Virus record (IMG/VR): IMGVR_UViG_3300043451_000039
Span: 1 to 64,000 of that record
DNA length: 64,000 bases
From: a virus
Lineage: Duplodnaviria > Heunggongvirae > Uroviricota > Caudoviricetes
Direction: 5' to 3' (one strand)
Position 1 is the first letter of the stretch, and the number at the start of each line of letters is the position of its first letter. A program made the position numbers and the translations under genes. A model generated the notes under the pieces. It was not told the origin of the DNA and ran no database searches. It saw only the letters and a list, made by a program, of their open reading frames with translations. Shown piece by piece: positions 2,148-64,000 of this stretch.

Positions 2148-2148
2148 A

Positions 2149-2400
2149 TTATACCTTTAGAAAGTCTAACAATTGTTCTTCATTCATCATACCAACTTTG
2201 CGTTTAATCTCTGCGCCATTTTCATCAATTAGAATCATAGTTGGAACAGAACGAACGCCATATTCAATCGAAGTCATCATCTCATTATCAATATCAAGTT
2301 CTTCAATTGGAACATTAATTTTATCTTTTGCTCCCTTGATAATTGTAGTCAATGCTTTGCATGGTCCACACCACTCTGCGTAAAATTTAAGTACTTTCAT
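2149..2400 (-). CDS. Thioredoxin
   Basis: 83 aa with WCGPCK active-site motif (AEWCGPCKAL). Confidence 0.85.
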   Translation of the reverse strand: MKVLKFYAEWCGPCKALTTIIKGAKDKINVPIEELDIDNEMMTSIEYGVRSVPTMILIDENGAEIKRKVGMMNEEQLLDFLKV

Positions 2401-2409
2401 ATATTCTCC

Positions 2410-2958
2410 TTATGGGTTGTTCTTTGAATGCGGCACATCAAAGACAAATGTAACTCTAACACAGTCTCCGATATTTTTAGTGCCATGTGGTAATTTATTA
2501 TTAAACCAAAGCAAGGTTCCAGGTTCAACTGTAACTGATTCATCACCTACCGTATATATGTATCTTCCTTGAATGGATAGATGGTAGCGATCTCTTGTTT
2601 GATAATAAGTTCCAATGTCGATATGTTTTCCAACCTCGCCACCGACTGGCAATGAAAGGAAACCACAACGACTAAACTTCTTGAAGTTTCTTTTTAGGAA
2701 ACCAATAATCTCTGTGTGATGTTTTGCTGCTGGTGTTGGGATACAAATCTCAGTATCGCCAACATATTGGTCGAGTGATTCAACACCACCCATAACCAAC
2801 TGAAGGACACCTGCATCAACTTGAGGGAAACCATAATCTAATAATGTTTCAACTCCCTCAATCTTGGTTTGACCACCCCAATCTTCAGGATGGTCTTTTA
2901 ACTGTTTCAATATCTTACTGACATTGATTCCAGTTTTAATAATACGAATGTTAGCCAA
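2410..2958 (-). CDS. Cupin-fold protein, aspartyl/asparaginyl beta-hydroxylase-like (2OG-Fe oxygenase-like)
   Basis: 182 aa. The C-terminal region (PGTLLWFNNKLPHG..VRVTFVFDV) resembles the Asp/Asn beta-hydroxylase cupin family seen in marine T4-like phages. Assigned from motif memory only. Confidence 0.4.
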   Translation of the reverse strand: MANIRIIKTGINVSKILKQLKDHPEDWGGQTKIEGVETLLDYGFPQVDAGVLQLVMGGVESLDQYVGDTEICIPTPAAKHHTEIIGFLKRNFKKFSRCGFLSLPVGGEVGKHIDIGTYYQTRDRYHLSIQGRYIYTVGDESVTVEPGTLLWFNNKLPHGTKNIGDCVRVTFVFDVPHSKNNP

Positions 2959-5437: not shown

Positions 5438-6006
5438 TAAGACTTTCCGTACATTAACATCATAGCATCAAGAGCACAATCATGAACAGGGTGGTGTTTA
5501 ATAACTTGTGCTCGGTCAAATTTAGGGTGATCAACTTCACAGTAGCCATTAGTGCCACCACTGAGCAAGTCAACGGCAGTTCTCACGTCCCTCCACATAT
5601 TATACCCAGTAATGGGTTGCATGTCAAGTTTTTTAGCGAGAGAATCAATTACCATTTGATCAAGGGAACCTCGTGCCCACATAGTCTGACCATTTGCGTT
5701 TACATACTTGTTCATATAGTTATGTAACTCTTTGATTGCATCTTCAGCAAACATATCAGTTGAGTTTGGCTCAAACGATACTTGTTTAAGGTAATCGTGT
5801 TGATTCGCCCACCACTCAAGAGTGGATATGTCTGCTGTTCGACCAAGACGCTTCGCTTGGTCTTTGGCATTTAATTTAACAAAGCAAGCATTATCAAGTA
5901 GATCTTGATAGGTTGGTTTATCAGCTGGGTCAAAATGAATTAATGCAGCTGACAAAATGACAGCAGTTGATTCAACACCCAAAGTCTCTACGTCAAAAAT
6001 AAACAT
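5437..6006 (-). CDS. DEDD-type 3'-5' exonuclease (DexA-like)
   Basis: 189 aa. N-terminal MFIFDVETLG is typical of the Exo I motif of DnaQ-like exonucleases. Start overlaps the gp43 stop. Confidence 0.5.
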   Translation of the reverse strand: MFIFDVETLGVESTAVILSAALIHFDPADKPTYQDLLDNACFVKLNAKDQAKRLGRTADISTLEWWANQHDYLKQVSFEPNSTDMFAEDAIKELHNYMNKYVNANGQTMWARGSLDQMVIDSLAKKLDMQPITGYNMWRDVRTAVDLLSGGTNGYCEVDHPKFDRAQVIKHHPVHDCALDAMMLMYGKS

Positions 6007-6395
6007 TAGTAATCTCTCTCTTCGCCTTCTTTGGTAAAGAAGGCATTAATCTTTTGTTGGTCAGTCCACTCTTGAGTGTAATCATTATCTTCATCGCAGA
6101 TATCCAATGCTTCCATTTGAGATACAACACGATGACTTAAAATTGTTTCACCAAGCCACTTCTGCGAAAACTCTTTTGGTCGTTGCATAGTCACATCATC
6201 AAGCGCATATTCAGGATGTTCTTTAGGACACTCAACCATATAGCGCATACGATACTGACCAATCGCCTCAACCATTACCCATACTTTATCAGTCATTTTT
6301 ATTTCTCCTTGCTTGATATTCTGCTTCATGTTCATCACAAAGGGTTCTAACCCATCCACCATGGCGTCCTTCACCGATATCGCCACATTCTTCAC
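6006..6395 (-). CDS. Hypothetical protein; the real start is probably the internal ATG at 6296 (MTDKVWV...), giving an ATGACTGA-type overlap with the upstream stop
   Basis: ORF in track. The longer form overlaps the upstream gene by 107 nt; the internal ATG sits 8 nt from the upstream stop. Confidence 0.4.
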   Translation of the reverse strand: MKNVAISVKDAMVDGLEPFVMNMKQNIKQGEIKMTDKVWVMVEAIGQYRMRYMVECPKEHPEYALDDVTMQRPKEFSQKWLGETILSHRVVSQMEALDICDEDNDYTQEWTDQQKINAFFTKEGEERDY

Positions 6396-6822
6396 AAGTA
6401 ACAGCAGTCATACCTTCTGCCATAGCAACTAGACCAGAGATATAATCATCACCACCATCATAGTAAAACCGCAATGTTCCAAACTTCTCTTTAACTTGAG
6501 CAATAATAACCTGTGGGACTTCTGGTGGGATGACAACACCATCCTTCATAATTTCTTCAGCATTCTCAATATCCCAATCACTTGGTTCTCGTTTACCTGA
6601 AAGGAACGCAAGTAGAGCATCATAACCTTGTTCACGAGCATTGAACTTCTCAATCTCTCTATTGCGCTGACTATTCCTCCAGTCGATATGCGTTTGAATA
6701 TTCTGGCATAGGATTCTTAGGATATTGAACCACCCTTTACCGCAGGCAATACCACCATAGTGCTCAGTGAACATCAATGGATATACAGCGGGAAAATAGT
6801 TTTGAAATTCTTCATCAGTCAT
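6289..6822 (-). CDS. Hypothetical protein (177 aa)
   Basis: ORF in track, in a compact minus-strand gene array. Confidence 0.5.
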   Translation of the reverse strand: MTDEEFQNYFPAVYPLMFTEHYGGIACGKGWFNILRILCQNIQTHIDWRNSQRNREIEKFNAREQGYDALLAFLSGKREPSDWDIENAEEIMKDGVVIPPEVPQVIIAQVKEKFGTLRFYYDGGDDYISGLVAMAEGMTAVTCEECGDIGEGRHGGWVRTLCDEHEAEYQARRNKND

Positions 6823-6823
6823 A

Positions 6824-7261
6824 TTAATACCAAGTCCTATGAGTTTCTGCTACATGTTCACGACCATCATACTCTTCAATTTCGTAGTTAACTCCATCTG
6901 GAATTTCTACAATTGCCAACTCAGCACAACGACCAGAATATAATTCACTGTTCTCTTCAACCAACTGAACTAGATGTGGATCATTTCTTTCAATATCACG
7001 ACACGAAATAGTCTGTTCTGAATATGCAGCGTTATATGCTCTACGATCTTCCATGCTCATCTCATAGAATGTTTTACCCTCTTTTAATTCTACTCGTTCG
7101 CCTTCTGGTAGCAACCAACAAGTAAACAAACCAAGAGATTTAAACTTAGTGTCTTCTTCGATAAAACATGGTAAGCCAGCCAATTCACAATAGCGAACAA
7201 TACCCTCTTTTGATAAAGAGAACCCACCAAAGCAACGATTAATCACAACCTTCATACCCAA
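6824..7261 (-). CDS. Hypothetical protein (145 aa)
   Basis: ORF in track; tight spacing to neighbours. Confidence 0.5.
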   Translation of the reverse strand: MGMKVVINRCFGGFSLSKEGIVRYCELAGLPCFIEEDTKFKSLGLFTCWLLPEGERVELKEGKTFYEMSMEDRRAYNAAYSEQTISCRDIERNDPHLVQLVEENSELYSGRCAELAIVEIPDGVNYEIEEYDGREHVAETHRTWY

Positions 7262-7476
7262 CTCCTAAAATCTTCTTTCTTAATACCTAACAACTTATGA
7301 ATCATTTTATCCTTGATCATATCTGGAATAGTTAGATATGGGAACTCAAGAATAAATGGACATCCATTATTTCCCCAAGCATGCGTCTTGAGAAAGTTTT
7401 TATACATGTTAATATGTTGCTTACTTTTTGGATCGAAAAACATCTTCGGTTTAATAATCGCAGCGAGTACGCTCAT
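7252..7476 (-). CDS. Hypothetical small protein (74 aa)
   Basis: ORF in track with 4-nt overlaps to both neighbours. Confidence 0.35.
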   Translation of the reverse strand: MSVLAAIIKPKMFFDPKSKQHINMYKNFLKTHAWGNNGCPFILEFPYLTIPDMIKDKMIHKLLGIKKEDFRSWV

Positions 7477-8786
7477 TTAATATCCTTACTGGCATCAGCC
7501 TCATCTTTGTCATCACGAATCTCAACAAACACTGGAAGGAATAGACTTTCCTCACCAAGTTTATTCTTTATACGACTATTATACTTGACTGCGACAATTT
7601 TGTCAAGTATTTCTTGACCATAAGTCTTGCGATGCGCATCAGTAAAGCCAGAGCCTACATTAACCTTAACTACACCATCTGATGATTCGCAAACAATAGC
7701 ACCGAGCATTCCTGCATACTTACCAGTACCTTCTTCAATCGCAACAATCTTAAGATCGCATTCGAGTTCGCCTTTGAATTTGATTTGGGTTTTGCTACGC
7801 TTGTTTTCCCAAACACCAGAACCATCTTTGAGGATAATACCTTCTAATCCTTGGGCGAGGTATCCTTCAAATAGTTTAGTTGTTTGTTCTAGATTCTCAA
7901 CGATATCGCTAGTAACAATCCAAATCTTTTTACCTTGTGGTGGTTGCTTATCAATAAGCATCTTTAAACTAGAGAAGCGAGTTGAGTATGGAGTTGCACA
8001 ATAACCTGTCTCAAATAATACATAAGGGATAACATCCCACACAGTGGCGTGAACCATGGCAGCTTCTTTGGCTGAGATAGTGCCCTTGTTTGCTTTGTTT
8101 AGAATACCATTTCCTGATTGACGATCCATGAATTGGTAATCCATATCATCCATCACCAGTAGTTCGCCATCGAAAACACAATCAATATCACCAGCAAGAG
8201 AAATAAATTCTTGCTCCAGATTGCCAAGTAGTAATATTTCTTTGCCATTTCTGCTCCTGAATTCACATTTACCATTTCTGACGATGGCGTTGAAGCGCAT
8301 CCCGTCCATCTTTAGTTGGGCGTATGCTGGATACTTTATTTTGTCCACCAACTTTTGGTCGAACTGACTGCACAGCATGCACGGATATTCGCTCACCAAG
8401 CCACTCCACACTGCGTTTGCGGTTGATACTTGAACCCCACATTTTAAATCCTTCTGAATAATTCGTTCAATAACCTTTGCGTCATCTGGTGATAGACCAG
8501 ATAGAATAGCACGGAGATGCGCAATAGCAGCATTGCCAGTTACTTCACGACTTGACAAGTAGTAAAGGTTATCGATCGCCATTTCTAGAGTTGTTTGGTG
8601 TTCTGAATCCTCGCCAGCAAATTCATACTCTGGGATCTTTCGTTGATAGAATTGAGTAAAAGGATCTAGCGCAAGACGGATAACTTCACGGAGGGTTTGA
8701 TTATCCTTGTTGGCTTCCAGTTGTTCAATCTTAAAGTTGCGGGATGCGTTAGCAGCAAGAGAGTTCAAAAATTCATTAATGTTCAT
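7473..8786 (-). CDS. 30: ATP-dependent DNA ligase (T4 gp30-like)
   Basis: 437 aa with the nucleotidyl-transferase motif I KxDGxR (AQLKMDGMRF) and a ligase-like size. Confidence 0.8.
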   Translation of the reverse strand: MNINEFLNSLAANASRNFKIEQLEANKDNQTLREVIRLALDPFTQFYQRKIPEYEFAGEDSEHQTTLEMAIDNLYYLSSREVTGNAAIAHLRAILSGLSPDDAKVIERIIQKDLKCGVQVSTANAVWSGLVSEYPCMLCSQFDQKLVDKIKYPAYAQLKMDGMRFNAIVRNGKCEFRSRNGKEILLLGNLEQEFISLAGDIDCVFDGELLVMDDMDYQFMDRQSGNGILNKANKGTISAKEAAMVHATVWDVIPYVLFETGYCATPYSTRFSSLKMLIDKQPPQGKKIWIVTSDIVENLEQTTKLFEGYLAQGLEGIILKDGSGVWENKRSKTQIKFKGELECDLKIVAIEEGTGKYAGMLGAIVCESSDGVVKVNVGSGFTDAHRKTYGQEILDKIVAVKYNSRIKNKLGEESLFLPVFVEIRDDKDEADASKDIK

Positions 8787-8968
8787 TTGTGTTTCAATTC
8801 TTTAAAAGTTCTGTAACGCATGTCCCAACGAATCGGTTGCTTGAATCGCTTAACCTCTTTGGTGGTTGTGTTATAGAAGGCATAGATTTTACTCTTACTG
8901 TCATTGGTATAATAGATATGGTTGGCTACCTTACCATCCCAAACAGTTGTCTCTTGGAAGACCCGCAT
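8783..8968 (-). CDS. Hypothetical small protein (61 aa)
   Basis: ORF in track, start/stop-coupled to neighbours. Confidence 0.3.
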   Translation of the reverse strand: MRVFQETTVWDGKVANHIYYTNDSKSKIYAFYNTTTKEVKRFKQPIRWDMRYRTFKELKHK

Positions 8969-23576: not shown

Positions 23577-24971
23577 TTACTTGTTGCTGTTCTTGCGAAC
23601 TTCTTCGAAAGTAATTTCGTTGATAAGTTTGCCATCACGGAAAACTTCTTGCAGAACCTCAGTCCAACCAAGACCTTTGTCAGTCCAGCCAGTGGGCTGA
23701 GTAACAGCAGAGCGATGCTCACCACCAGATTCCCAAAGGGTTACACGACCAGCCTTTGACTTCTTGCCAGAATCAGTAACAGGATCTTTCTGAACATCAA
23801 CCCAAACTCCGTTGATCTTAGCAGAAGAACACTTCATTGCGAACTTCTGAGTATCACGATCAACAATTTGAAGAAGAGCACCGCCCATACCGAAAGCAAT
23901 GTTATCAGCTGACCACCCATAGGCTTGGAAGCCACCGAGAATCATGCGGATAGTGTGTTCATTAACACCATCACCTTGGATCAAACGAACATTGTTCAGT
24001 ACTTTGAATCCTTTGGCGTTGGTTGTATAACCGAATTTCTCTCCAAGGATTTGGACGAGTTTGCGGCATACGGTGTCAGGATCACCAGAGTCGGGACGGA
24101 TAACCACAGTCGCACCAGAGACGATAACTTGCTCCTTGAGTTCTTCACCCCAGAGTTTGCTTGCTGCATTGAAGATGTCATACGAATCACTCACAACTGC
24201 CAAGATAGAACCTTCACGACCGAATTGCTTCAGCATATTCTCATATGCCTTCACTTCATTGTCTCGCCCCCAGCTTGTGATTGTGCTGTGCTCTGCGGCT
24301 GGGATTGAGAAGCCTGCGATACCAGCGTTATAATACTCACGAGCATAGAGCAAGCCAGTAATAGTATCAGTGCCCATGAAGTTAACCAAGTGGGACGCAC
24401 CCCCAACTCCAGCAGACTCAAGGCTAGATACACCACGAGCACCAAAATCGTGTAACTTAAAATCGATAGTAGAAGGGTCACCAGTTTTCTCCAAGTAGTC
24501 AAGAATAATTTTCTTGATAGATTTAGATTGTGTTGCTACAGTTGTAGGATACCATACAGCACGAAGCAAAGCAGTTTCCAAATAAGTTGTCAACCAGAAA
24601 CATTCTGGATCAGTGTTTTCAATTGTCGCCAGAACATTCTTAACAGGCACCACTGTGCCTTCAGGAACAGCACGAATAACAACTGGAAGGAATCCGTTAT
24701 GTTTGGTAAGGATATACTCCCAACCAGCACGGTTGAATGGTTCTCCGTGTGCAGTGAGAATTTCATCTGCGATATCGATATCGGCTTGGGTAATTGGTTC
24801 AAGTAAATACTCCTTGATGAACGCTTGAAGACCGAAGAATACTGTTTCATCATAGCGTCCGCCACGAGATTCAATATATGAATATACACCAGTTGTACCA
24901 GCTGGATATTGTTTGAACATGCTAACTTTGTAGCTGTCTGTGTTCAACAGAATGTTTTTTGCGAGTTTCAT
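23577..24971 (-). CDS. nadV: Nicotinamide phosphoribosyltransferase (NAMPT/NadV)
   Basis: 464 aa with NAMPT-family length and motifs (NTDSYK...GTDT...DSYD). Adjacent to a NadM-Nudix gene as in KVP40. Confidence 0.85.
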   Translation of the reverse strand: MKLAKNILLNTDSYKVSMFKQYPAGTTGVYSYIESRGGRYDETVFFGLQAFIKEYLLEPITQADIDIADEILTAHGEPFNRAGWEYILTKHNGFLPVVIRAVPEGTVVPVKNVLATIENTDPECFWLTTYLETALLRAVWYPTTVATQSKSIKKIILDYLEKTGDPSTIDFKLHDFGARGVSSLESAGVGGASHLVNFMGTDTITGLLYAREYYNAGIAGFSIPAAEHSTITSWGRDNEVKAYENMLKQFGREGSILAVVSDSYDIFNAASKLWGEELKEQVIVSGATVVIRPDSGDPDTVCRKLVQILGEKFGYTTNAKGFKVLNNVRLIQGDGVNEHTIRMILGGFQAYGWSADNIAFGMGGALLQIVDRDTQKFAMKCSSAKINGVWVDVQKDPVTDSGKKSKAGRVTLWESGGEHRSAVTQPTGWTDKGLGWTEVLQEVFRDGKLINEITFEEVRKNSNK

Positions 24972-37077: not shown

Positions 37078-37085
37078 TATTTATA
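37078..37085 (-). promoter_or_regulatory. T4-type late promoter TATAAATA (gp55-dependent) upstream of gene 22
   Basis: Plus strand tatttata at 37078-37085 is TATAAATA on the minus strand, about 32 nt upstream of the gp22 ATG. Confidence 0.45.
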
Positions 37086-51936: not shown

Positions 51937-53094
51937 TTAAAAACCGAAAATAATAGAGTAACCAAGATAGTCTGACTTAACAGATTGGTCAAGGTTAGAT
52001 AACGAAACAACACCATCCAAACGCAATGGTCCAAGGTCATAAACAACGGGAACTGCACCACCAACTGCGCCTAGATCTTCTTCAGCAATAATATTAGTAT
52101 CATAAACGAAACCAAGATCTGAAGTAGCCTGTGGAGCAAAAATAGCACTGTTACCTGATGTACCAGTATAGGCAATAGAGATAGAACCACTATTATTGGT
52201 GATCTGAATATAGTCACCTGCCTGAAGTCTATTTAGAGTAAATCCATTTGAGGAATTACCGATTAGCAATTGACCGACTTCTGGAGCAGTAGTTTGACCA
52301 GTACCACCTTGAGAAATTGCTAATTGCGATCCTAATGTTAAAGAATCTAATCTTGTTGTGCCAGCATACAAAGTGCCAGCAATACCAACACCACCAGCAA
52401 CTTTAAGGGCACCAGTAGTTTTGCTACTACTTGTTGTAGTATCAGAAAGTGTAACTACACCAGTAACACCAAGTGTGCTAGAGAATGAACCAGATGTTGC
52501 TGTTAATGCACCCATTCTTAATGGCGCATATGTGCCACTGAATATATTAGTATTCTCAGTAGCTGCTGTTAATAGAACATATTGGGTTGCAGAGTTATCA
52601 TAACCCATGAATCCAATTTTTTCGCCACTAGAATAATACTTGAAAGAAATACCACGATCGTAACCATCGTTAGATCCAAGAGTACCACCTTCAGCAGCCC
52701 CACCAAGTTGAATTGTTGGGTCAACAATTCGTGTGATGGTTGAATCAATTACGTTCGATTCACCAAGAACTGTAAGATTACCGTAAATAGTAACAGCGCC
52801 AGTTAATGAACTTGTTCCAGTAACTGAAAGATTTGCGCCAAGACTAACATCACCAGTAGTTGTTATTGTTCCAAAGTCAACATCAGTTGCAGATAAGTGA
52901 TCAACACCTTCTAAATCAGAACCAGTAATAAAGTTGGTAAAGTCAGCACGTGCTAATTCAAATCCACCAGCAGTTGATCCATCGTGAAGATGGATAGAAT
53001 GGTTTGTTGAGTTTAATGTTACCTCACCACTTGCACCAGTAAAGGTTTCGTGTTGAGTAGCAGTACCTCTTCTTAATTGTAATTGAATAGCCAT
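51937..53094 (-). CDS. Tail-fibre-like protein (385 aa)
   Basis: N-terminus MAIQLQLRRGTATQHETFTGASGEVTLNSTN..HDGST is paralogous to the N-terminus of 47723-49042. Gly/Thr-rich shaft. Confidence 0.5.
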   Translation of the reverse strand: MAIQLQLRRGTATQHETFTGASGEVTLNSTNHSIHLHDGSTAGGFELARADFTNFITGSDLEGVDHLSATDVDFGTITTTGDVSLGANLSVTGTSSLTGAVTIYGNLTVLGESNVIDSTITRIVDPTIQLGGAAEGGTLGSNDGYDRGISFKYYSSGEKIGFMGYDNSATQYVLLTAATENTNIFSGTYAPLRMGALTATSGSFSSTLGVTGVVTLSDTTTSSSKTTGALKVAGGVGIAGTLYAGTTRLDSLTLGSQLAISQGGTGQTTAPEVGQLLIGNSSNGFTLNRLQAGDYIQITNNSGSISIAYTGTSGNSAIFAPQATSDLGFVYDTNIIAEEDLGAVGGAVPVVYDLGPLRLDGVVSLSNLDQSVKSDYLGYSIIFGF

Positions 53095-55721: not shown

Positions 55722-58700
55722 TTAATATGTGCCACCATCAATGTCGCCCCAAGTTGGAACGCCAGTGTCACTCATTTGAAGAATCTTACCAGAATCTCCA
55801 CCATTCAATTTACTTAGGGTATTTGTAGCAGAAGCATAAATCAAATCACCCTTTGCGTAGCTGGTAAATCCAGTACCACCGTAAGCAGAACCGATAGCAG
55901 TTGCATTCCAAGTGCCAGAAGTAACAGTACCAAGAGTAGTGATAGATGTTTGACCAACATAAGTTGAAGCAATATCGATAGAATCTGTAGATACAGAAAT
56001 ACGATCAGCGCTTCCACCGATAGAAAGAACACCACTGCTATATGTTAAACCGTCACCAGCAAGTGAAGATTTTAATTGTAGTTCGTCGTCAACAATCTCA
56101 ATACCACCAGAAGCTGCAACATTAACAGCGAATGTTACGCCAGTTAATGATAAACCATCACCAGCAGTATAAGCGCCAGAACCAGCGAACTGAACATAAG
56201 TTTGATAGTTACCAGTTTCACCAAAGTTTGTTAGGTATGTATTGGTCTGTGTCCAACCAGTAGCACCGTAAACAGTACCTTCCATAACATAAACAGCCAT
56301 ACCAACAAGTTCTTGGTATGTATCAGTATCTGCGGAACGAGTAAGGGTATAAGTACCACCTCCCTGTTCATAAACATAGATACCATTTTCAGCTGGATCA
56401 GTCTGGTTGATAAGAAGAATTCTATAACCATTGTTAGACGCAGTTAATGTTGCGTGACTATCAATACTTAAAGTAGAACCAGATCCAGTTAATGGAATAT
56501 TAGTATTTGATAATAAGTGAACTGAATCTTTCCAAGTTAAACCAGTAACCTTACTATCAACATAAGATCTGTTGGCAGCATCAGTTCCATTAATTGGAGT
56601 AGCAACATTGGTAATTCTAGAAGAAGAAGCGTTAATAGTACCAGCGCCATTTGGTGTCAACTCAATATCACCATCAGTGTTTGTGGCAGTAATTGAGTTA
56701 GCATCAATTTTTAAGTTGGTAGCATTATATGTAACTTCTTTAGTATCAGAATTGTAAATTACATACTGAGTACCATCATTTACGTTGCGAATTGGATCAA
56801 TGTATAGACCTTGTTCGCTTGGGTTGATACCAGTTCCGTTACCGTTGGCAGTTGCTTGGATAACGATAGAGTTAGCGTGTTGGCTATATTCACCAGCATG
56901 CGCACCGATGGCGATAGCATTAGTGCCTTGACTAGATGTGTCAAACACACCCATACCAGCATGGTGACCGATGGCAACAGCCCAACCACCTTGATTATAA
57001 CGACCAGCCAAACGACCGATAGCAATTGCTTTCTGTCCTTGGTATTGTGAACCAGCCCAACGACCTAATGCGATAGCACTAAATCCTTGGTCTGTATCAG
57101 CAGCATCTTCACCAATAGCGATAGAAGTTAATGATTGACCAGTATGACCAGCGTTGTTACCAATAGCAACTGCATTTTGTTGTTGATTAACTTGACCAGC
57201 ATTAACACCGATTGCAACTGCATTGTAACCTTGTGAAGTTTGACCAGCTAAGTAACCAACTGCAATTGCTGATGAAGATTGAGATGTTTCACCAGCTTGC
57301 GCACCGATTGCTACTGCGTAGCTACCTTGATTTAAATAACCTGCGCCACCAACTGAAGAGTTTGGTGAAGAACCGATAGCGATAGCATCGCTACCTTGAC
57401 CAGAATTACCAGCACGATTACCCATGGCAATCGCATTGTTTCCTTGGTTAGTTGTACCAGCACGAGCACCAATTGCGATAGTATCCCAAGATTGACCATC
57501 TTGAGTATCTGGTTGGTAACCGATAGAAATTCTTTGTGAATAACCAGATGGGTCAACACCATTACCCAAAAGGATAGAGTTGCTAGAACCATCAGAAAGA
57601 ATAGCACCATGTGGTAATACTAATGTACCACTATTGGTATTGGTAAACTGCCAACGAGCATTGTCGTTGGCATAAAGGCTGATCTGGTTATTAAAATTAT
57701 TGATGTACCATTCGCCATCAAAGCCCATCTCGGCAATTTTAGTACCAGAGATATTGTTGCTATCATAGAATTGAATACCTGAATCTGGTAAACTAAAGTA
57801 TCCATCACCTTTGAATACTGCGTTTTTCTCAGTGCCATTAGAAGCAGCAAGGATAACATCACCAGTAGTATCATTGGTTTCGATAGTTCCTGGAATTACT
57901 AAGTGACCATCAGAGTTTCTGAAAGTTACTGAACCAGAATCATTCTGTTGAACGATGTCACCGTTGTTAGTGCGTAGGAATAAATTACCATTACGTTTTG
58001 CCCAGACAGCAATATCATCTGGACTGTCGTACCATGAACCACTAGCGCCACCGATGTCGATTAATGAATCGCCATTGTCGTAGTTGCCAAGAGTAATACC
58101 TTGATTACCAGTGTTCCAGATATTAAGACGATTTGAATTATCCCAATCACTGATTCTTAATGATGAATTGTTGTTATCAGTATCAGGAGTGATAAAGAAT
58201 GTATTATCATTGTATCGTCCAATTTGGATATAATTACCAAATTGCAACGGCATGTCTGCGTTCAATACCAATGAACCAGCATTTGGAAGGATACTTGCGG
58301 CTAGTGTATTGTTAGACCAGAACTGGACATAACCATCACCTTCGCTAAACATACCAGTATCATTATCATCAATGAAACCGTAACCAGTAGAACCGTAGTT
58401 AGGGTTGCCTTCTAACGCTAGGTAACCATCTGAAGACAAACCACCAGCAGTTGATAAGTTACCTTGAACATACAAAGCACCTTCAATAGAAACACCACCA
58501 GCAACTTGTAATGCACCAGTATTAGAACCAGTTGCTTCAGTTGTGGTTTTAATCTTGATACCGCTACCATCAACAGTAACTACATTAACTTCATCGGAAT
58601 AGAAATCAATGTTGCCGTTGTTGGCTGCAGTTACATATGTTAGTTGGTCAACTGAACGAACACCACCTAGTGATGACCAGTTTGTTCCATCGTAACCTTC

Positions 58701-59171
58701 GAAAGATGTATTAGTTGTATTGAAACGAATAGCGCCAGAAACTTGTGGTGCTTGTTGCGCAGTAGTTCCCTTTGGAATTACTAGTGCGTTTGTTCCAGAG
58801 ATAGTAACATATCCGTCACCATTAGGAGCAAGAACGATGTTACCATCAGTGTTTGTTGAACTGATTGTGTTACCATTTAGTTGTAAGTTATCAACTAATA
58901 GGTTATCAATTTTACTATCGGCATCAACAACGATAGCGGAGTTTGCAGTTAATGTACCAGCAACATGGTCTAATCTGTCTGTGAAAAACTTACCACCGAT
59001 AACTACGTGATTCGCAGCATTACCATTGCTCTCTGTGCCCATACCAATGTATAGACGATCACCACCATTCGAGCCGTTATCTGTTAAGTTTGAATATGCT
59101 AATTCACCAGCGCCCAGCGTACCTGGATTTCCTGAAACTGACGAACGCTTAATTCTAATAATTGAAGCCAT
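55722..59171 (-). CDS. Long tail-fibre protein (1149 aa) with YadA-head-like (Hep_Hag-like) xAIAIGxxAG repeats
   Basis: N-terminus MASIIRIKRSSVSGNPGTLGAGELAY. About 14 consecutive repeats of the type NAIAMGNRAGNSGQG / SDAIAIG... / YAVAIGAQAGETSQ / NAVAIGVNAGQVNQ. Confidence 0.6.
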   Translation of the reverse strand: MASIIRIKRSSVSGNPGTLGAGELAYSNLTDNGSNGGDRLYIGMGTESNGNAANHVVIGGKFFTDRLDHVAGTLTANSAIVVDADSKIDNLLVDNLQLNGNTISSTNTDGNIVLAPNGDGYVTISGTNALVIPKGTTAQQAPQVSGAIRFNTTNTSFEGYDGTNWSSLGGVRSVDQLTYVTAANNGNIDFYSDEVNVVTVDGSGIKIKTTTEATGSNTGALQVAGGVSIEGALYVQGNLSTAGGLSSDGYLALEGNPNYGSTGYGFIDDNDTGMFSEGDGYVQFWSNNTLAASILPNAGSLVLNADMPLQFGNYIQIGRYNDNTFFITPDTDNNNSSLRISDWDNSNRLNIWNTGNQGITLGNYDNGDSLIDIGGASGSWYDSPDDIAVWAKRNGNLFLRTNNGDIVQQNDSGSVTFRNSDGHLVIPGTIETNDTTGDVILAASNGTEKNAVFKGDGYFSLPDSGIQFYDSNNISGTKIAEMGFDGEWYINNFNNQISLYANDNARWQFTNTNSGTLVLPHGAILSDGSSNSILLGNGVDPSGYSQRISIGYQPDTQDGQSWDTIAIGARAGTTNQGNNAIAMGNRAGNSGQGSDAIAIGSSPNSSVGGAGYLNQGSYAVAIGAQAGETSQSSSAIAVGYLAGQTSQGYNAVAIGVNAGQVNQQQNAVAIGNNAGHTGQSLTSIAIGEDAADTDQGFSAIALGRWAGSQYQGQKAIAIGRLAGRYNQGGWAVAIGHHAGMGVFDTSSQGTNAIAIGAHAGEYSQHANSIVIQATANGNGTGINPSEQGLYIDPIRNVNDGTQYVIYNSDTKEVTYNATNLKIDANSITATNTDGDIELTPNGAGTINASSSRITNVATPINGTDAANRSYVDSKVTGLTWKDSVHLLSNTNIPLTGSGSTLSIDSHATLTASNNGYRILLINQTDPAENGIYVYEQGGGTYTLTRSADTDTYQELVGMAVYVMEGTVYGATGWTQTNTYLTNFGETGNYQTYVQFAGSGAYTAGDGLSLTGVTFAVNVAASGGIEIVDDELQLKSSLAGDGLTYSSGVLSIGGSADRISVSTDSIDIASTYVGQTSITTLGTVTSGTWNATAIGSAYGGTGFTSYAKGDLIYASATNTLSKLNGGDSGKILQMSDTGVPTWGDIDGGTY
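56800..57540. repeat. Degenerate tandem repeat DNA (about 33-45 bp units) encoding the xAIAIGxxAGxxxQ repeats of the long fibre (approximate bounds)
   Basis: Recurrent ...accgatagcgatagc.../...accaatagcaactgc... units on the plus strand. Confidence 0.5.
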
Positions 59172-59183
59172 CTTTTATCTCCG

Positions 59184-59429
59184 TTAAAATTCTCCGCCTT
59201 CCATAATCTGTAAATCCAGAGTTCTGGTAGCCGTCCATTTATTTGTTATTGTTTTATAAACTAAAACCGAGCCATTCGTCTTTGCTGATGTATCTACATC
59301 ACCAACATTACCAATAGATTCAACTGAAGAAGGATTCGATAAATTAGAAGAAGCAAGAGTAATAATACCCTCTGATACAGCAACCTGTAACGCTTCGTCT
59401 GGTTGTACAATAGCGATTGTATCTGACAT
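59184..59429 (-). CDS. Hypothetical protein (81 aa) immediately upstream of the long fibre gene
   Basis: ORF in track. Confidence 0.35.
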   Translation of the reverse strand: MSDTIAIVQPDEALQVAVSEGIITLASSNLSNPSSVESIGNVGDVDTSAKTNGSVLVYKTITNKWTATRTLDLQIMEGGEF

Positions 59430-59432
59430 ATT

Positions 59433-59768
59433 TTAAATCTGAGTTATTTGTGGGGTTACTGTTACTATTCCCTCAACCACTCTAGTTTTGTTCCCAGATT
59501 GGGAGGTAATCTCCACGTCATAAAGCCATCGTCCAGCTGGGATGGCTTCAGATTGAACAGGGGTTAGTTGGAGTCTGACTTTCCCAGCTGCAGCATCGTA
59601 GATGCTCGCTGTGAAACTATATGCTTGGCTGGAACTATACGATTTTCTCATCTGAGATTTTACCGTATATCCAGTCAGATCTAAGGGTTGGCCAGTAGTA
59701 GCAGCAACTGTAATGATGTTACTGTACGTTGTTCCTGCGTCAACAAAGAGGTTACTGATAGTCGCCAT
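59433..59768 (-). CDS. Hypothetical beta-rich protein (111 aa), late-promoter-driven
   Basis: ORF in track. TATAAATA sits about 34 nt upstream. Confidence 0.4.
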   Translation of the reverse strand: MATISNLFVDAGTTYSNIITVAATTGQPLDLTGYTVKSQMRKSYSSSQAYSFTASIYDAAAGKVRLQLTPVQSEAIPAGRWLYDVEITSQSGNKTRVVEGIVTVTPQITQI

Positions 59769-59801: not shown

Positions 59802-59809
59802 TATTTATA
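59802..59809 (-). promoter_or_regulatory. T4-type late promoter TATAAATA
   Basis: Plus strand tatttata at 59802-59809, upstream of the 59768 ATG. Confidence 0.4.
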
Positions 59810-59826: not shown

Positions 59827-60900
59827 TTACAAGAATACATTATCGCCGTTCTCTAATAAGAACAGCCAATTTGGTTCTGCTAGCGAGAAGTTTGAGATCT
59901 TCTTAGACTTATTATCTGCGTAATGCTTCTCTCCGAACATATCTGACAAAATTTCCCTCATTTGCCATCTATGAGTATTTGGGTTTCCTCGAATTTTTGT
60001 GAATGGCTCTTTTGTATTAATTGCCCAACTTTGAAAATCTTCTGAATTAAAGAACCCATGTATTTTATCTGCTGTTGGTTTGTTCAATAAAACCTTATGT
60101 TCATAAAGAGCAGTATACCAGTCTAAATTAAAAATACATAACCATCTTAAATCAGCAACTGTTTCTATCTTCTTCGGGGATGATTTAATTATTGGGTCCA
60201 AGAATTCTAGAATCTCTGGATTAACATTTGTGTAAGATTCATAAATTGTTTCTGGCGTCCCAAGAGTGTGATGAAACATAGCAGTCCCACCAGTTGCAAA
60301 CATATCATCGGTTGGACCGAACAGTTGATTACCACACATACCACTCACATAGATTCCTGGCTCTTGGTATTTTAAATCATTACGCTTAGAAACATCTATG
60401 TGATATTTAAATTCATTCTTTAATCTTCTATCAAACATATCACCAGACTCAATAATAGAATTGTAAGTTCCATAGATCCTAACTTGGTCTGGATCATTAG
60501 CGAAATGTCTTAATATGAAAAGAATGTATGTGCTGTCTATACCTCCAGACCACATTACATTAATCGGCTGACCCAAATCAAGTAACTCTTTAGCCCTTCT
60601 CTTAGAAACCTCAAAGAATGAATCGTTTACTACATGAGATGGGATTGGGTGTAGGTCTTTTGAAATATTCAAAAAGTGCGGTAGAGAATTGGTTCTATCG
60701 TAAACAGCGTTGAATCTGTTTAGACCAATTTTATCATAAGTGTCAAAAATTTTCTTATCAAAATCTTTAGCCAGAAAAGGAGAATTTTCTATGGCATCTA
60801 AATTATGTTCTATAAGATTTGAAACATGGTGAACATTATAATATACAATCATGGGATCCTCAAATGAAAATAGGGAGCAACGCTCCCTATTACTTATCAC
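59827..60900 (-). CDS. PP-loop ATP-pyrophosphatase superfamily protein (asparagine-synthetase-like / adenine-nucleotide alpha-hydrolase fold)
   Basis: 357 aa with SGGxDS PP-loop (NVMWSGGIDSTYILF) at residues about 117-125, preceded by a domain of about 110 aa. Last gene of a four-gene overlapping operon. Confidence 0.6.
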   Translation of the reverse strand: MISNRERCSLFSFEDPMIVYYNVHHVSNLIEHNLDAIENSPFLAKDFDKKIFDTYDKIGLNRFNAVYDRTNSLPHFLNISKDLHPIPSHVVNDSFFEVSKRRAKELLDLGQPINVMWSGGIDSTYILFILRHFANDPDQVRIYGTYNSIIESGDMFDRRLKNEFKYHIDVSKRNDLKYQEPGIYVSGMCGNQLFGPTDDMFATGGTAMFHHTLGTPETIYESYTNVNPEILEFLDPIIKSSPKKIETVADLRWLCIFNLDWYTALYEHKVLLNKPTADKIHGFFNSEDFQSWAINTKEPFTKIRGNPNTHRWQMREILSDMFGEKHYADNKSKKISNFSLAEPNWLFLLENGDNVFL

Positions 60901-60908
60901 TTTTGTTT

Positions 60909-61856
60909 TTAGTGTAGTTGAATCTTCTCAACTAGACCTGGAGTGAAGTAGTCAGCAAACTTAGCGTAAACTGGAGCAGTAACTTCTTTGAAGCGTGCTT
61001 CTTGTTCAGCAGTCATCTTAACAACTTCAACACCCTCAGCCTCGCATTGAGCCAAGATGTTTGGAATATCAGCAACAGACTCGCGACGCTCTTGACGAGC
61101 AGCGTTGAATGCAGCAGTAGACAAGATTTCTTGAGTCTCAGCATCGAATTGCTTGAAGAAGTCTTGGTTAACGATGATAGATGTCAAGAACAAGCTGTGG
61201 GCTGTATCGTTAACAACTTTGAAACTCTTGTGTTGGTCTAGTGGGAACACACGAACGTAAGTAGATTCACCAGCTTCGATCAAACCTGCATCAGCTGCAG
61301 CATTCATTTCTTCCAAAGCGATGTGTTCTTTTGGTTCTGCGCCGAGCAACTTGAAAGTCTCAACAGCAACTGGAGAACGAGAAGTGCGAACTGTGCGCCC
61401 TTGCCATGCTTCTACAGTGTCAGCCTTAAAGTTAGCTGGAACAACACGGTATCCACCAGAGTAAGTAAAAGACATAGCATGAGTATTAGAATTCTTAGCA
61501 ACACCAGCCAATAACTCAGTACCGATAGAACCTTCTAGAACTGCGTCAGCGTGAGCATGGTCACGGAACAAGAATGGAAGATCTAACGCATGTAGGTCTT
61601 TGTTATAGTCAGCCAACCAAGTAGTATAGATATGGCTCATTTCGATAGCGCCAGTATCAACCAACTTCATTAAAGCATCTTTGGTGATCTTTTGACCGCC
61701 ATTGTATTTGTTGGTATAGTCAGTTAAAGAAAGAACCTCGATGTCAAACGCACCATTAGTTTTCTCATTAACTTCTTTAGCGAATCTCTCCGCTACTTTC
61801 AAAAACAAACCGATAGGTTCGTGGGCAATAACCCATTTTACATGTTTAGTAGTCAT
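60909..61856 (-). CDS. TRAP-transporter solute-binding-protein (DctP family) homologue lacking a signal peptide
   Basis: 315 aa. KWVIAHEP..., FAKEVNEKTNGAFDIEV, LDLPFLFRDHAHADAVLEGSIGTELL and the C-terminal VYAKFADYFTPGLVEKIQ are DctP-family hallmarks. The N-terminus MTTKHVKWVIAHE has no hydrophobic leader. Confidence 0.7.
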   Translation of the reverse strand: MTTKHVKWVIAHEPIGLFLKVAERFAKEVNEKTNGAFDIEVLSLTDYTNKYNGGQKITKDALMKLVDTGAIEMSHIYTTWLADYNKDLHALDLPFLFRDHAHADAVLEGSIGTELLAGVAKNSNTHAMSFTYSGGYRVVPANFKADTVEAWQGRTVRTSRSPVAVETFKLLGAEPKEHIALEEMNAAADAGLIEAGESTYVRVFPLDQHKSFKVVNDTAHSLFLTSIIVNQDFFKQFDAETQEILSTAAFNAARQERRESVADIPNILAQCEAEGVEVVKMTAEQEARFKEVTAPVYAKFADYFTPGLVEKIQLH

Positions 61857-62140
61857 TTCTTAATTTCCTCTGTAGGTATAAAAACCCAGTGTTCTGTTTG
61901 ATTGTCTACATTTATCAATCTTTTCATAACAGGCTCGCTATTATTTATAAGATTTCTAATCACATCCGCACTAGGAAGTTCTTCTTTATTTAGGATCAAA
62001 CTTACTGGGACTACGGTCTCTCTATGACCATAAGTTTGATTATTTGAATCATAGTAGAAGTAATCCTTTATCCTAAAAGTCCCGTCTGGGAATCTAGGAT
62101 ACTCAGATATTTCTACCAGATATTCATTTATAAAACTCAT
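61853..62140 (-). CDS. Hypothetical protein (95 aa) coupled between the rSAM and SBP-like genes
   Basis: ORF in track with 4-nt overlaps at both ends. Confidence 0.45.
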   Translation of the reverse strand: MSFINEYLVEISEYPRFPDGTFRIKDYFYYDSNNQTYGHRETVVPVSLILNKEELPSADVIRNLINNSEPVMKRLINVDNQTEHWVFIPTEEIKK

Positions 62141-63528
62141 ACCGCTACGATTGGTATAAATTTTTTGTTCTTACGGGCAGTTGCTGGCTTACCATTAATC
62201 CACCAGTATATATCTTTTCGATCTTCTCTTAATGGTCCATCAATATATCCTGGAATATACCCATTTGTAATAGTCTCAATTGCTAAAGTAAAGGCAACGA
62301 TATTATCACTGAACGCATTATTACAAGAAGTTTCCCAAAGATCACCAGTCAAGAACATACATGCGCCTTTGCAAAGATGAACGACTGGGCAGTTAGGGCA
62401 CTCTTCTCTATCTCTCCAATGTGTCGATGTTTTAAGGTCTACTGAACTTAAATCAGAAACATGTCCTACGTGGTGGGAAATACCAGAAGGGTTTGTAGAA
62501 ACTGCGCTTACGTTTTGGCAGGTAAGAACATTCCCGTTTAAATCTACTGCGATATTTTGACTGCTATCCATACCGCATTTTTGACCAAGACTTTCTGATA
62601 GATTACCTTGTTCTATGGTAGCAATAAAATCAAAAACCTTCTTATTCACATTATCAAATCTAGTGACCTTACCTTCGCGGAGTTCATTTAAAGAATGATT
62701 TCTATAACGAACTTCTTCATCTTCATTGCCGAGAGAGTTAGCGACACCACCCTCATCATAAGCGTCAACAAATCCACCTTCACCAATAGAAAGGTATTGT
62801 AGGTATTCTTCACCAAGGTTATCAATAACAAACTTCTCAAAGAACATTTGTATAGCAATTCTGCTATAATTCTTTGAGTTAATCATAGCATTGAAACTTA
62901 CTCTTTGTTTAGGAGCAAATCTTCTGAAGATCTCAATAATTGCTTCTTTTGATTTTGGATCATCTAGTGGATCAGGACCACGAACAGGTTGCCCTGGACC
63001 ATCATGCGAAATACCAACTAGGAAATTATACTTGTCTAGCCAGTCAATCTTTTCAGCATCAAATAAACTACCATTTGTGATAATTGTAAATGCTGCTTTT
63101 GGGTATTTTTTGTTTATTGCTTCTGCTAGTGGTTTAAGGGTTTTCCAGTAAACCAATGGCTCACCACCCCAAAACTCGAATGTAGAACCGCCACCTAAAC
63201 CATCATCCCCACCTTCATACCAAGATGCCATATTATTTACAAATGGCTCAACATCATTTGGGTTGGTTGAGTCGGCATGAGGAACAAACCTCTGAGAACA
63301 ATATTCACATTCAAAATTGCAAGAAAGCCCAAGCTGAATCTTTATCTTCTTAAGATCCTTCTTGGACTTTTCTATTCTTCTTAAACTACCAGTTGGTTGT
63401 TGTACTAAAGCATCTTTGATAACTGGCTCACCATTATCCCAGATTAATGTACTATTAGAACTATCATATGTTATTTTACGCTCATCCCTTTTTTCAGGGT
63501 GCATCACACTTATCTCAAATTTCGCCAT
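62137..63528 (-). CDS. Radical SAM enzyme with C-terminal SPASM domain
   Basis: 463 aa. The CxxxCxxC motif is CNFECEYC (residue about 70), with GGEPL and GISHDG motifs. C-terminal auxiliary-cluster cysteines CGMDSSQNIAVDLNGNVLTC and CPNCPVVHLCKGAC (Cx2Cx5Cx3C). Confidence 0.8.
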   Translation of the reverse strand: MAKFEISVMHPEKRDERKITYDSSNSTLIWDNGEPVIKDALVQQPTGSLRRIEKSKKDLKKIKIQLGLSCNFECEYCSQRFVPHADSTNPNDVEPFVNNMASWYEGGDDGLGGGSTFEFWGGEPLVYWKTLKPLAEAINKKYPKAAFTIITNGSLFDAEKIDWLDKYNFLVGISHDGPGQPVRGPDPLDDPKSKEAIIEIFRRFAPKQRVSFNAMINSKNYSRIAIQMFFEKFVIDNLGEEYLQYLSIGEGGFVDAYDEGGVANSLGNEDEEVRYRNHSLNELREGKVTRFDNVNKKVFDFIATIEQGNLSESLGQKCGMDSSQNIAVDLNGNVLTCQNVSAVSTNPSGISHHVGHVSDLSSVDLKTSTHWRDREECPNCPVVHLCKGACMFLTGDLWETSCNNAFSDNIVAFTLAIETITNGYIPGYIDGPLREDRKDIYWWINGKPATARKNKKFIPIVAV

Positions 63529-63553: not shown

Positions 63554-64000
63554 TTATGCTAAAGTAACATTAAATGTAGCAAGTTTAGTAAATCTCTTAA
63601 CACCAGCGTGGCAAGTGATAGTATCACCAGAGGCAAATGTGCTTGTTAAAATCTTGAAAGAACCAGAACCATTAGTTAATTTAACCTTTGTTCTATCTAG
63701 GATACCTGCTTCTGCTTCTAATTCAATAGAATCTAGGTCAGTGTGGCTACTTGTTACATTAACAGTAATTACATCACCAGCAGCAGGAGTACCTGTAGTA
63801 GTCATTGTTAATTCTGTAAAAATATCAGCTCTAGATTGTGGGCTAACTGCAGCATCAATATCAACAACAGTTCCATTTAATTTAACAATGAATGTATTAA
63901 ATGTGTCAAGGTTTACAATAGCAAGAGCAGAATCAAAATCAGAGTTCTGATTCTTAAAGAATAAATCTACTGGTAGATGTTTATCTTGATTAGGAAGAAC
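63554..64000 (-). CDS. Hypothetical beta-rich protein, 5'-truncated by the window edge (the ORF stays open upstream of the listed Met)
   Basis: Manual translation of 63806-64000 on the minus strand shows no stop (..VLPNQDKHLPVDLFFKNQNSDFDSALAIVNLDTFNTFIVKLNGTVVDIDAAVSPQSRADIFTELTMTTTG..). Confidence 0.45.
   Translation of the reverse strand, partial: VLPNQDKHLPVDLFFKNQNSDFDSALAIVNLDTFNTFIVKLNGTVVDIDAAVSPQSRADIFTELTMTTTGTPAAGDVITVNVTSSHTDLDSIELEAEAGILDRTKVKLTNGSGSFKILTSTFASGDTITCHAGVKRFTKLATFNVTLA

Follow-up and report, generated by a model that had tools for sequence, protein, structure and literature searches.

The stretch of DNA analysed here (the window) is 64,000 nt long and comprises positions 1-64,000 of IMG/VR record IMGVR_UViG_3300043451_000039, from an uncultured T4-like myovirus. 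It carries a module of four genes, all on the minus strand, which encode in order a radical S-adenosylmethionine (rSAM) enzyme of 463 aa with a SPASM domain (62137-63528), a 95-aa orphan protein named p95 (61853-62140), a 315-aa leaderless homologue of DctP-family solute-binding proteins (SBP, 60909-61856) and a 341-aa stand-alone synthetase of the AsnB type with a PP-loop (59827-60852). The last three are referred to as the trio. The parts fall in known superfamilies, and by its make-up the module resembles rSAM/SPASM maturase cassettes. When IMG/VR was scanned for the rSAM, PP-loop and SBP proteins, about 120 loci were recovered (comparison loci and contigs carry the prefix L). The four genes co-occur in dozens of distinct uncultured T4-like viral contigs and in at least three gene orders, and this recurrence marks them as a selected module.

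The rSAM enzyme has the core fold of the radical SAM superfamily and its CX3CX2C motif, here CNFECEYC (C70-X3-C74-X2-C77), together with GISHDG. Seven C-terminal cysteines (C318-X13-G332-X4-C337, C377-X2-C380-X5-C386-X3-C390 and C402) make up the complete 7-Cys SPASM motif, CX9-15GX4C...CX2CX5CX3C...C, for two auxiliary 4Fe-4S clusters. All ten cysteines (3 + 7) are invariant across 51 distinct homologues, which bears out the signature described in an earlier sequence-only reading of the window. That reading had also noticed about 60 extra N-terminal residues, and the match to Pfam Radical_SAM (PF04055, E 2e-8, 35 bits against a cut-off of 29.5) indeed begins at residue 68. The SPASM model TIGR04085 gave 31.1 bits (cut-off 27), and phrog_1802 was matched with E 5e-66. 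With TIGR04085 above its cut-off and the 7-Cys motif complete, the enzyme is not an activase of the NrdG/QueE type without a SPASM domain, and the QueE model gave no match.

The nearest solved structures to the rSAM enzyme were 8vpo (the top match, unnamed), CteB (E 2e-11), the anaerobic sulfatase-maturating enzyme (anSME), ChlB and YydG; the profile aligned with anSME over its full length (residues 71-401 on 15-342, E 3e-10). All of the functionally named closest structures are peptide- or protein-modifying enzymes, the best curated models are all peptide maturases, and no sugar or nucleotide rSAM enzyme was found among the nearest curated models or structures. To our knowledge, enzymes with a full 7-Cys SPASM domain overwhelmingly modify peptides or proteins. 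The SPASM architecture and the nearest named relatives therefore indicate a protein or peptide substrate. The enzyme scored well under every curated equivalog cut-off (for example PapB, 55.9 against 340). Identity as anSME was rejected (TIGR03942, 55.9 against a cut-off of 349.45; PRK13745, 35 against 484), and the cluster is not an anSME-plus-sulfatase cassette, as no sulfatase was found among the scanned neighbours. Prokaryotic viperin (pVip) was likewise rejected (NF038283, 46 against a cut-off of 180): the PADLOC pVip match (49 bits) spans the rSAM core only, and this generic match was the only one that defence-system models gave at the locus.

Directly 5' of the rSAM gene lies C0, of which the window holds the C-terminal part (63554-64000, -); the full gene encodes 283 aa (source contig L206, 9124-9975). 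The sequence-only reading had listed small neighbouring open reading frames of 81, 111 and 83+ aa. The first two stand as the genes p81 and p111, and the third is the C-terminus of C0, truncated by the window end. The C-terminal domain of C0 is conserved (..YLE..G.L...RV...G.....G...GD...VKAGFK.F.G). A C0 hidden Markov model (HMM) matched ORF047 of Ralstonia phage RSP15 (E 1e-14 / 2.6e-40), L009-L014, L041 and 47 bacterial loci, and hhalign detected no relation between C0 and JWF gp029/B15, RSP15 ORF046, p111, p81 or p95. Counted over 120 distinct rSAM loci flanked by 3 kb or more of sequence on either side, C0 was the commonest neighbour, occurring within 6 kb in 82, and in the permuted locus L041 it immediately precedes the rSAM gene. 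Proteins of the 2-oxoglutarate (2OG)-Fe(II) oxygenase type were next (62 of the 120 loci). Oxygenases and the trio were nearly exclusive: an oxygenase was present in 1 of 34 loci with the trio, versus 60 of 84 loci without it.

The rSAM family extends well beyond the T4-like contigs. Phage RSP15 and the Achromobacter siphophages JWF and 2-1 carry homologues with 43-45% identity in their tail-fibre regions, and in three unrelated phage types (T4-like contigs, RSP15 and the siphophages) the gene is found at the distal end of fibre modules. A profile scan placed the family in at least 159 viral stretches and in at least 200 from bacteria, many of the latter in genomes of Limnohabitans, Polynucleobacter, Polaromonas, Rhodoferax and Burkholderia. 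These bacterial copies stand in prophage tail modules of the JWF kind, which run from a J-like fibre through B9, B7, B2, C0 and one or more oxygenases to the rSAM gene, with lysis genes after it; in Limnohabitans, Polynucleobacter and Burkholderia genomes, too, the gene takes the distal position. The set of rSAM, C0 and oxygenase is common in such prophages of freshwater Burkholderiales, with several copies in some genomes (L126-L205), and this distribution may be a clue to which hosts the window's phage group infects.

The SBP gene was confirmed as a DctP-family member without an export signal (PF03480, E 2.5e-43; NF037995, 114.6 against a cut-off of 50); a hydrophobic N-terminus was seen in 0 of 54 distinct homologues. 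The protein's top matches in the PDB are TRAP SBPs. Its GRTVRTSRSP motif, kept in 47 of the 54 homologues, contains an Arg that aligns to the carboxylate-binding Arg (in IRT/IRV) of the solved structures. The protein thus has the fold and the Arg of a TRAP SBP, without the export signal; no DctQ or DctM was found at the window locus, and among related loci they occurred in L111 only, with a different, exported DctP. DctP homology indicates that an organic acid is bound, and several of the top TRAP SBP relatives, from structural-genomics screens of the Enzyme Function Initiative (EFI), presumably bind uronates or aldonates. The SBP presumably acts as an intracellular ligand holder instead of a transport receptor. 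In L111 (IMGVR_UViG_3300006810_000150, 1632-8948), three AsnB-like ligase paralogues precede the genes for all parts of a TRAP transporter, namely DctQ, DctM and a DctP whose classic signal peptide marks it as exported, and the leaderless SBP gene comes directly after them. The exported DctP, of the TakP/keto-acid type, has no similarity to the cytoplasmic SBP and was rejected as its paralogue.

The SGGIDS PP-loop that had been read in the last gene was found as described. Its start was placed at ATG 60852, which yields exactly the database protein P0001, encoded on a JGI contig of 174 kb; the program-made reading frame began at GTG 60900. The fold matches AsnB, beta-lactam synthetase (13.8), TsnB9 (13.5) and CarA (12.0) at 9-13% identity, and far lower scores were obtained for QueC, LarE, NAD synthetase and tRNA thiolases. 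The protein has the SGGxDS motif and synthetase-domain fold of the AsnB family; it lacks the N-terminal nucleophile (Ntn) glutaminase domain and any conserved Cys cluster, and falls under the family models (PF00733, 14.9 against 21; TIGR01536, 13.9 against 267). The enzymes matched by fold all make an amide from an activated carboxylate, and the AsnB-type fold indicates ATP-dependent carboxylate activation and amide formation. The family counts 1390 representatives at E<=1e-3 and lies outside Pfam coverage. No bacterial homologue with the two family motifs was found in a scan of 185,579 species genomes, and multi-domain members (a fusion to leucine-rich repeats and others) gave no functional clue. 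Two family members (HMM E 1e-16 and 1e-14) adjoin baseplate/tail genes in Pseudomonas phage Cygsa01 (PP179332.1; L286, 4739-6888). Both are annotated there as "tRNA-specific 2-thiouridylase MnmA", probably wrongly; that the 90-aa reading frame between them is a p95 homologue was not supported.

The predicted fold of p95 is a compact beta-beta-beta-alpha-beta-beta domain (predicted local distance difference test, pLDDT, 89) without a structural relative. It has no Cys and no leader/core layout, its C-terminus is variable, and Glu, Ser, Tyr, Arg and Trp residues are invariant. A database search with the single sequence found only one relative, and an alignment was needed as query to find more; in the divergent loci L077, L083 and others the small reading frame is a remote p95 homologue. 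The gene goes with the ligase and not with the rSAM gene (L007, L044).

The sequence-only reading had described all four genes as one operon coupled by 4-nt overlaps. This holds for the rSAM/p95 and p95/SBP junctions, which were verified as ATGA overlaps, so that p95 overlaps a neighbour at each end. The SBP/PP-loop junction (60853-60908, -) consists instead of a 56-nt spacer, in which a GC-rich hairpin of 10 bp is followed by a T-rich tail (hairpin and T-run, 60869-60891, -) and a GAGGA ribosome-binding site. The hairpin is kept in most of 42 distinct relatives (L026-L115), mostly as GGGAGC-UUCG-GCUCCC and with compensatory stem variants, and the spacer order in the relatives is an ATAAATA-like box, the hairpin, a U-run and the ribosome-binding site. 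From its sequence, the element looks like a terminator/late-promoter junction that would give the SBP and the ligase different expression levels, and the idea of a single translationally coupled operon does not hold, since this element splits the SBP from the PP-loop gene. A T4-late-promoter-like TATAAATA also stands 34 nt 5' of the p111 start (59802-59809, -). Because of the conserved hairpin element and the TATAAATA before p111, C0-rSAM-p95-SBP, the PP-loop gene and the following p111-p81-fibre block are probably separate expression units. With three copies in the window, TATAAATA is not enriched, and the argument from it is purely positional. Two copies are intergenic (37078-37085 and 59802-59809, -), 32-34 nt 5' of the scaffold gene and p111, and are consistent with T4-type late promoters; the third lies inside p95 (61942-61949).

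The gene order of the window was seen in L004, L026, L039 and L052, among others. Permuted orders were p95-SBP-PP-rSAM (L030, L066, L068) and p95-SBP-PP-C0-rSAM-oxygenase (L041). Of 37 distinct PP-loop genes for which 4 kb or more of flank was available on either side, 33 had an rSAM gene within 4 kb and 35 had an SBP gene. This association between trio and rSAM spans two divergent rSAM subfamilies, 35-40% (L077, L083 and others) and 57-69% identical to that of the window. The SBP and ligase form a particularly tight pair: a PP-loop family gene lies within 3 kb of 47 of 50 distinct SBP genes and is directly adjacent to 41 of them, and the pairing persists with ligases only 21-28% identical to the window's. 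Across the pairs, ligases are 21-100% and SBPs 75-97% identical. The four genes are not an indivisible unit, as their order is permuted (L030, L041, L068), the rSAM gene stands alone ahead of p111-p81-fibre in L005 and L006, the SBP is missing in L007, and the trio occurs without a nearby rSAM gene in L034. The rSAM gene accompanies the trio nearly always, and the trio is often missing beside the rSAM gene. The set is thus a composite in which an rSAM core, usually with C0 and at the distal end of fibre modules, is combined with interchangeable accessory sets. In L034 (380-9440), L031-L037 and L044, the trio lies 3' of NrdA/NrdB, followed by a phage IscU/NifU scaffold gene (E 2.6e-54); no rSAM gene was found near these trios within the flanks examined.

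The capsid protein of the phage is 64-65% identical to proteins of cyanomyophages, Pelagibacter phage HTVC008M and Methylophilales phage Melnitz. A comparison with vibriophages of the KVP40 type, which had been proposed earlier, was dropped because the phage is not KVP40-like, its major capsid protein pointing to cyanomyophage- and pelagimyophage-like phages. A nucleotide search of 50,697 phage records gave no match for the locus. The source contig has a 2138-aa DUF4815 protein on one side of the module and fibre and neck genes on the other, in agreement with the earlier description of virion and fibre genes around it. The hypervariable host recognition cluster occupies just this place, bounded by a giant DUF4815/VrlC-like baseplate protein and by gp13-15, the neck genes. 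Such clusters are known from pelagimyophages and cyanomyophages, where unexamined "radical SAM cassettes" have been mentioned, and they are mosaic, with lipopolysaccharide (LPS)-related and auxiliary genes unconnected to fibres (PMC7029224).

Taking the domain identities, folds, cofactor motifs, conservation and gene linkage as they stand, we put at roughly 40% the probability that the module serves rSAM-centred maturation of a protein of the host recognition cluster, with a lineage-specific ATP-dependent branch that forms amides; the substrate, the ligand and the chemistry are what we infer. The rSAM/SPASM enzyme, with its SAM cluster and two auxiliary clusters, would abstract hydrogen from a residue of a fibre-cluster protein, and the outcome of this radical step could be a cross-link, an oxidation or an epimerisation. 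The best candidate for the substrate is C0. The SBP would hold an organic acid by its conserved Arg, and the AsnB-type synthetase would use ATP to adenylate a carboxylate, either that of the SBP-bound acid or one on the target (Asp, Glu or the C-terminus), and then join the activated carboxylate to an amine as an amide. A role for p95 as partner or adaptor of the ligase may be envisaged. In sister phages and prophages the 2OG-Fe(II) oxygenases take the trio's place, which suggests alternative tailoring of one target, and the rSAM unit and the trio may be presumed to share that target. In favour of maturation are the invariant SPASM motif and the named relatives of the rSAM enzyme, the amide-forming enzymes that the ligase resembles in fold, the conserved Arg and absent signal peptide of the SBP, the linkage of the rSAM family to fibre modules and C0 and of the trio to the rSAM gene, the near-exclusiveness of trio and oxygenases, and the baseplate/tail neighbours of the two ligases in Cygsa01.

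Several results weigh against rSAM-centred maturation. C0 has no Cys or known motif and no PDB, Pfam or PHROG match, and JWF-type loci have the unrelated B15 in its place. The trio also occurs away from structural genes, beside ribonucleotide reductase (RNR) and IscU, and the co-occurrence counts, taken on loci collected by homology, are in part confounded by phylogeny. Siphophages classically accommodate cargo genes between their fibre and lysis genes. Gene position is therefore weak evidence, also because the host recognition cluster holds genes unrelated to fibres (PMC7029224). The SBP is 94-97% identical at the amino acid level and 86-90% at the nucleotide level to those of L073, L074, L075, L076 and L085, against 58-69% for the flanking rSAM enzyme and ligase, and four-fold third-position identity in the same comparison was 0.74-0.80 for the SBP and 0.29-0.59 for the flanks; the SBP was therefore exchanged more recently, is far more constrained, or both. 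Such high conservation fits a small-molecule role better than a role in an arms race, and DctP-family proteins are known to bind small organic acids, not proteins.

The first of the alternatives is a small-molecule or glycan pathway, which would make the module an auxiliary metabolic cassette or one that modifies the host surface. Here the SBP captures a sugar acid or other organic acid, the ligase amidates it and the rSAM enzyme oxidises or rearranges it (in the manner of BtrN), so that host metabolism or the host envelope is altered, for example for superinfection exclusion, and virion proteins are not the target. Beside the very strong constraint on the SBP, its DctP family membership, conserved Arg and TRAP SBP relatives in the PDB, this explanation draws on the adjacency of SBP and ligase in 41 of 50 cases despite ligase divergence, on the trios beside RNR/IscU and, in L111, beside a complete phage TRAP transporter, and on the LPS-related and auxiliary genes of host recognition clusters (PMC7029224). 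However, the full 7-Cys SPASM domain is typical of peptide and protein modifiers as far as we know, no sugar or nucleotide rSAM enzyme was among the nearest models or structures, and the rSAM gene stays beside C0 and fibres in phages without the trio. The module also contains no glycosyltransferase, sugar-nucleotide or export gene, and with an exported DctP so different from the SBP, the adjacency in L111 may be coincidence. We consider the small-molecule route somewhat unlikely. The sequence-only reading had offered protein maturation and a small-molecule route with an intracellular organic-acid binder as its two broad options, and these stay the two leading readings.

The division of the set by the terminator/promoter element, and the existence of each half without the other (L005, L006; L034, L044), raise the question of whether two independent cassettes, a fibre-associated rSAM+C0 pair and a p95-SBP-ligase set, simply share a permissive insertion site and have no common substrate. 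The host recognition cluster is a known mosaic region (PMC7029224), and the divergence history of the SBP differs from that of its neighbours. Against this, an rSAM gene within 4 kb of 33 of 37 distinct PP-loop loci, an association that holds in three or more gene orders and in both of the divergent rSAM subfamilies, and the replacement of the trio by oxygenases around the rSAM gene would be unexpected of unconnected cassettes, which makes coincidental neighbourhood rather improbable.

The sequence-only reading had also named p95 as a possible substrate, and the coupling of p95 to rSAM and SBP by translational overlap, its invariant Glu, Ser, Tyr, Arg and Trp and the classic layout of an rSAM/SPASM gene with a small reading frame recall a ribosomally synthesised and post-translationally modified peptide (RiPP). 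In such a route to a protein-derived cofactor or toxin, after the manner of pyrroloquinoline quinone (PQQ) or mycofactocin, the rSAM enzyme would cross-link p95, the ligase would amidate or cyclise it, as AsnB homologues do with lasso peptides, and the SBP would bind the product. A compact predicted domain with no Cys, no leader/core layout and a variable C-terminus makes a poor precursor, however, and the two genes also occur apart (rSAM without p95 in L005, L006 and the prophages; p95 without a nearby rSAM), p95 tracking the ligase. No protease, exporter or RiPP recognition element (RRE) domain was found in the module. A PqqD-like RRE identity for p95 was rejected, PqqD having three strands followed by three helices in place of the predicted beta-beta-beta-alpha-beta-beta fold. 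The module is therefore neither a lasso-peptide system (AsnB-like cyclase, RRE and protease) nor a PqqE/PqqD-type or other RRE-dependent RiPP maturase system, and we regard p95 as a very unlikely substrate.

Least credible is a nucleobase or DNA modification like the 7-deazaguanine synthesis by QueE (rSAM) and QueC (PP-loop), with the SBP binding a carboxylated intermediate: the substrate of QueC, 7-carboxy-7-deazaguanine, is a carboxylate, and the ligase has weak PP-loop-motif matches to the QueC-like phrog_1550 (E 0.003) and a "nitrile synthetase" PDB entry (E 0.025), but these span only about 20-35 residues, the rSAM enzyme has a full SPASM domain that QueE lacks and no QueE model match, no FolE, QueD or DpdA gene was seen in the locus or related loci, and membership of the pathway (a QueC with a Zn/Cys site, a QueE without SPASM, FolE and QueD) was rejected.

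Compared with known systems, the rSAM enzyme resembles the SPASM maturases anSME, CteB, QhpD, PqqE and YydG in its CX3CX2C and canonical 7-Cys motifs and in being encoded beside candidate protein substrates. It differs from them in having no sulfatase, Cys-rich peptide or RRE/PqqD partner, and in its family, phrog_1802, which occurs in phages and prophages and is linked to tail-fibre modules. From AsnB and its relatives beta-lactam synthetase, CarA, TsnB9 and the lasso cyclases the ligase is set apart by its length of only 341 aa, without an Ntn glutaminase domain or a degenerate form of it, and by its partners, nearly always a cytoplasmic DctP homologue and in most cases also p95. The SBP is a strong member of the TRAP SBP family (PF03480) with the carboxylate-clamping Arg kept; it differs in having no signal peptide and no DctQ/DctM partner in the window, and in being phage-encoded beside an adenylating enzyme. 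Cap9, the QueC-like PP-loop enzyme of type IV CBASS, conjugates a deazaguanine to a cGAS/DncV-like nucleotidyltransferase (CD-NTase). It resembles the module in its logic alone, as its PP-loop is QueC-like and not AsnB-like, its context is defence, and it has no SBP or rSAM partner.

The cassettes of pelagimyophage and cyanomyophage host recognition clusters (Zaragoza-Solas et al. 2020, PMC7029224) lie in the same hypervariable island, from the VrlC-type giant baseplate protein to the neck genes. That paper gives no composition, partners or function for its "radical SAM cassettes", and the SPASM/AsnB-like/DctP/p95 make-up and the links to C0 and prophage fibre modules are undescribed there. 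Apart from this remark, no description of the module was found in the searchable full-text literature, curated families or defence models, and the SBP-ligase pair occurred in no cultured phage of the collection searched. For cultured-phage records and the searchable literature, the earlier statement that the module is undescribed therefore holds.

If maturation of a fibre-cluster protein is what the module does, an rSAM-driven and ATP-assisted modification of tail-fibre clusters would add a new layer to the determination of host range and virion stability. Known covalent chemistry of virions is mostly autocatalytic (HK97-type isopeptides) or glycosylation. SPASM enzymes would have a new class of substrate, a TRAP binding protein would have a cytoplasmic job, and a stand-alone AsnB-superfamily branch, known from more than 1,000 representative sequences, would gain its first function. 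As the rSAM core is present in the cultured phages RSP15 (with C0) and JWF, the hypothesis is directly testable. A wider generalisation would be that several tailed-phage families carry dedicated enzymes that covalently remodel host-recognition proteins after translation, an rSAM/SPASM enzyme being combined with interchangeable tailoring sets (2OG-Fe(II) oxygenases in some; in others, as in the window, an AsnB-type ligase with the cytoplasmic SBP as supplier of the organic acid to be attached). That would be a new class of post-translational modification of virions and a new use of the TRAP SBP fold inside cells; we think it unlikely.

After the module, usually though not always, comes the context block p111-p81-fibre (55722-59768, -); in L057, L072 and L093 the module is directly followed by gp13-15 instead. 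The block consists of p111 (59433-59768, -), which resembles tail-fibre-assembly proteins (phrog_1084/3304), p81 (59184-59429, -), between p111 and the fibre gene, and a 1149-aa fibre (55722-59171, -). The middle of the fibre contains a long series of YadA-like "AIAIG..AG...QG" repeats; against its relatives, the N-terminal ~130 aa are 56-90% identical and the C-terminal ~300 aa 31-47%, with the centre swapped among phages. A 385-aa protein of the fibre cluster (51937-53094, -) has a precomputed Pfam match to Mtd_N on the source contig, Mtd_N being the N-terminal domain of the Bordetella phage major tropism determinant. Elsewhere in the window, a nicotinamide phosphoribosyltransferase gene, a phage NAD-salvage gene, was found at 23577-24971 (-; phrog_448, E 3e-165).

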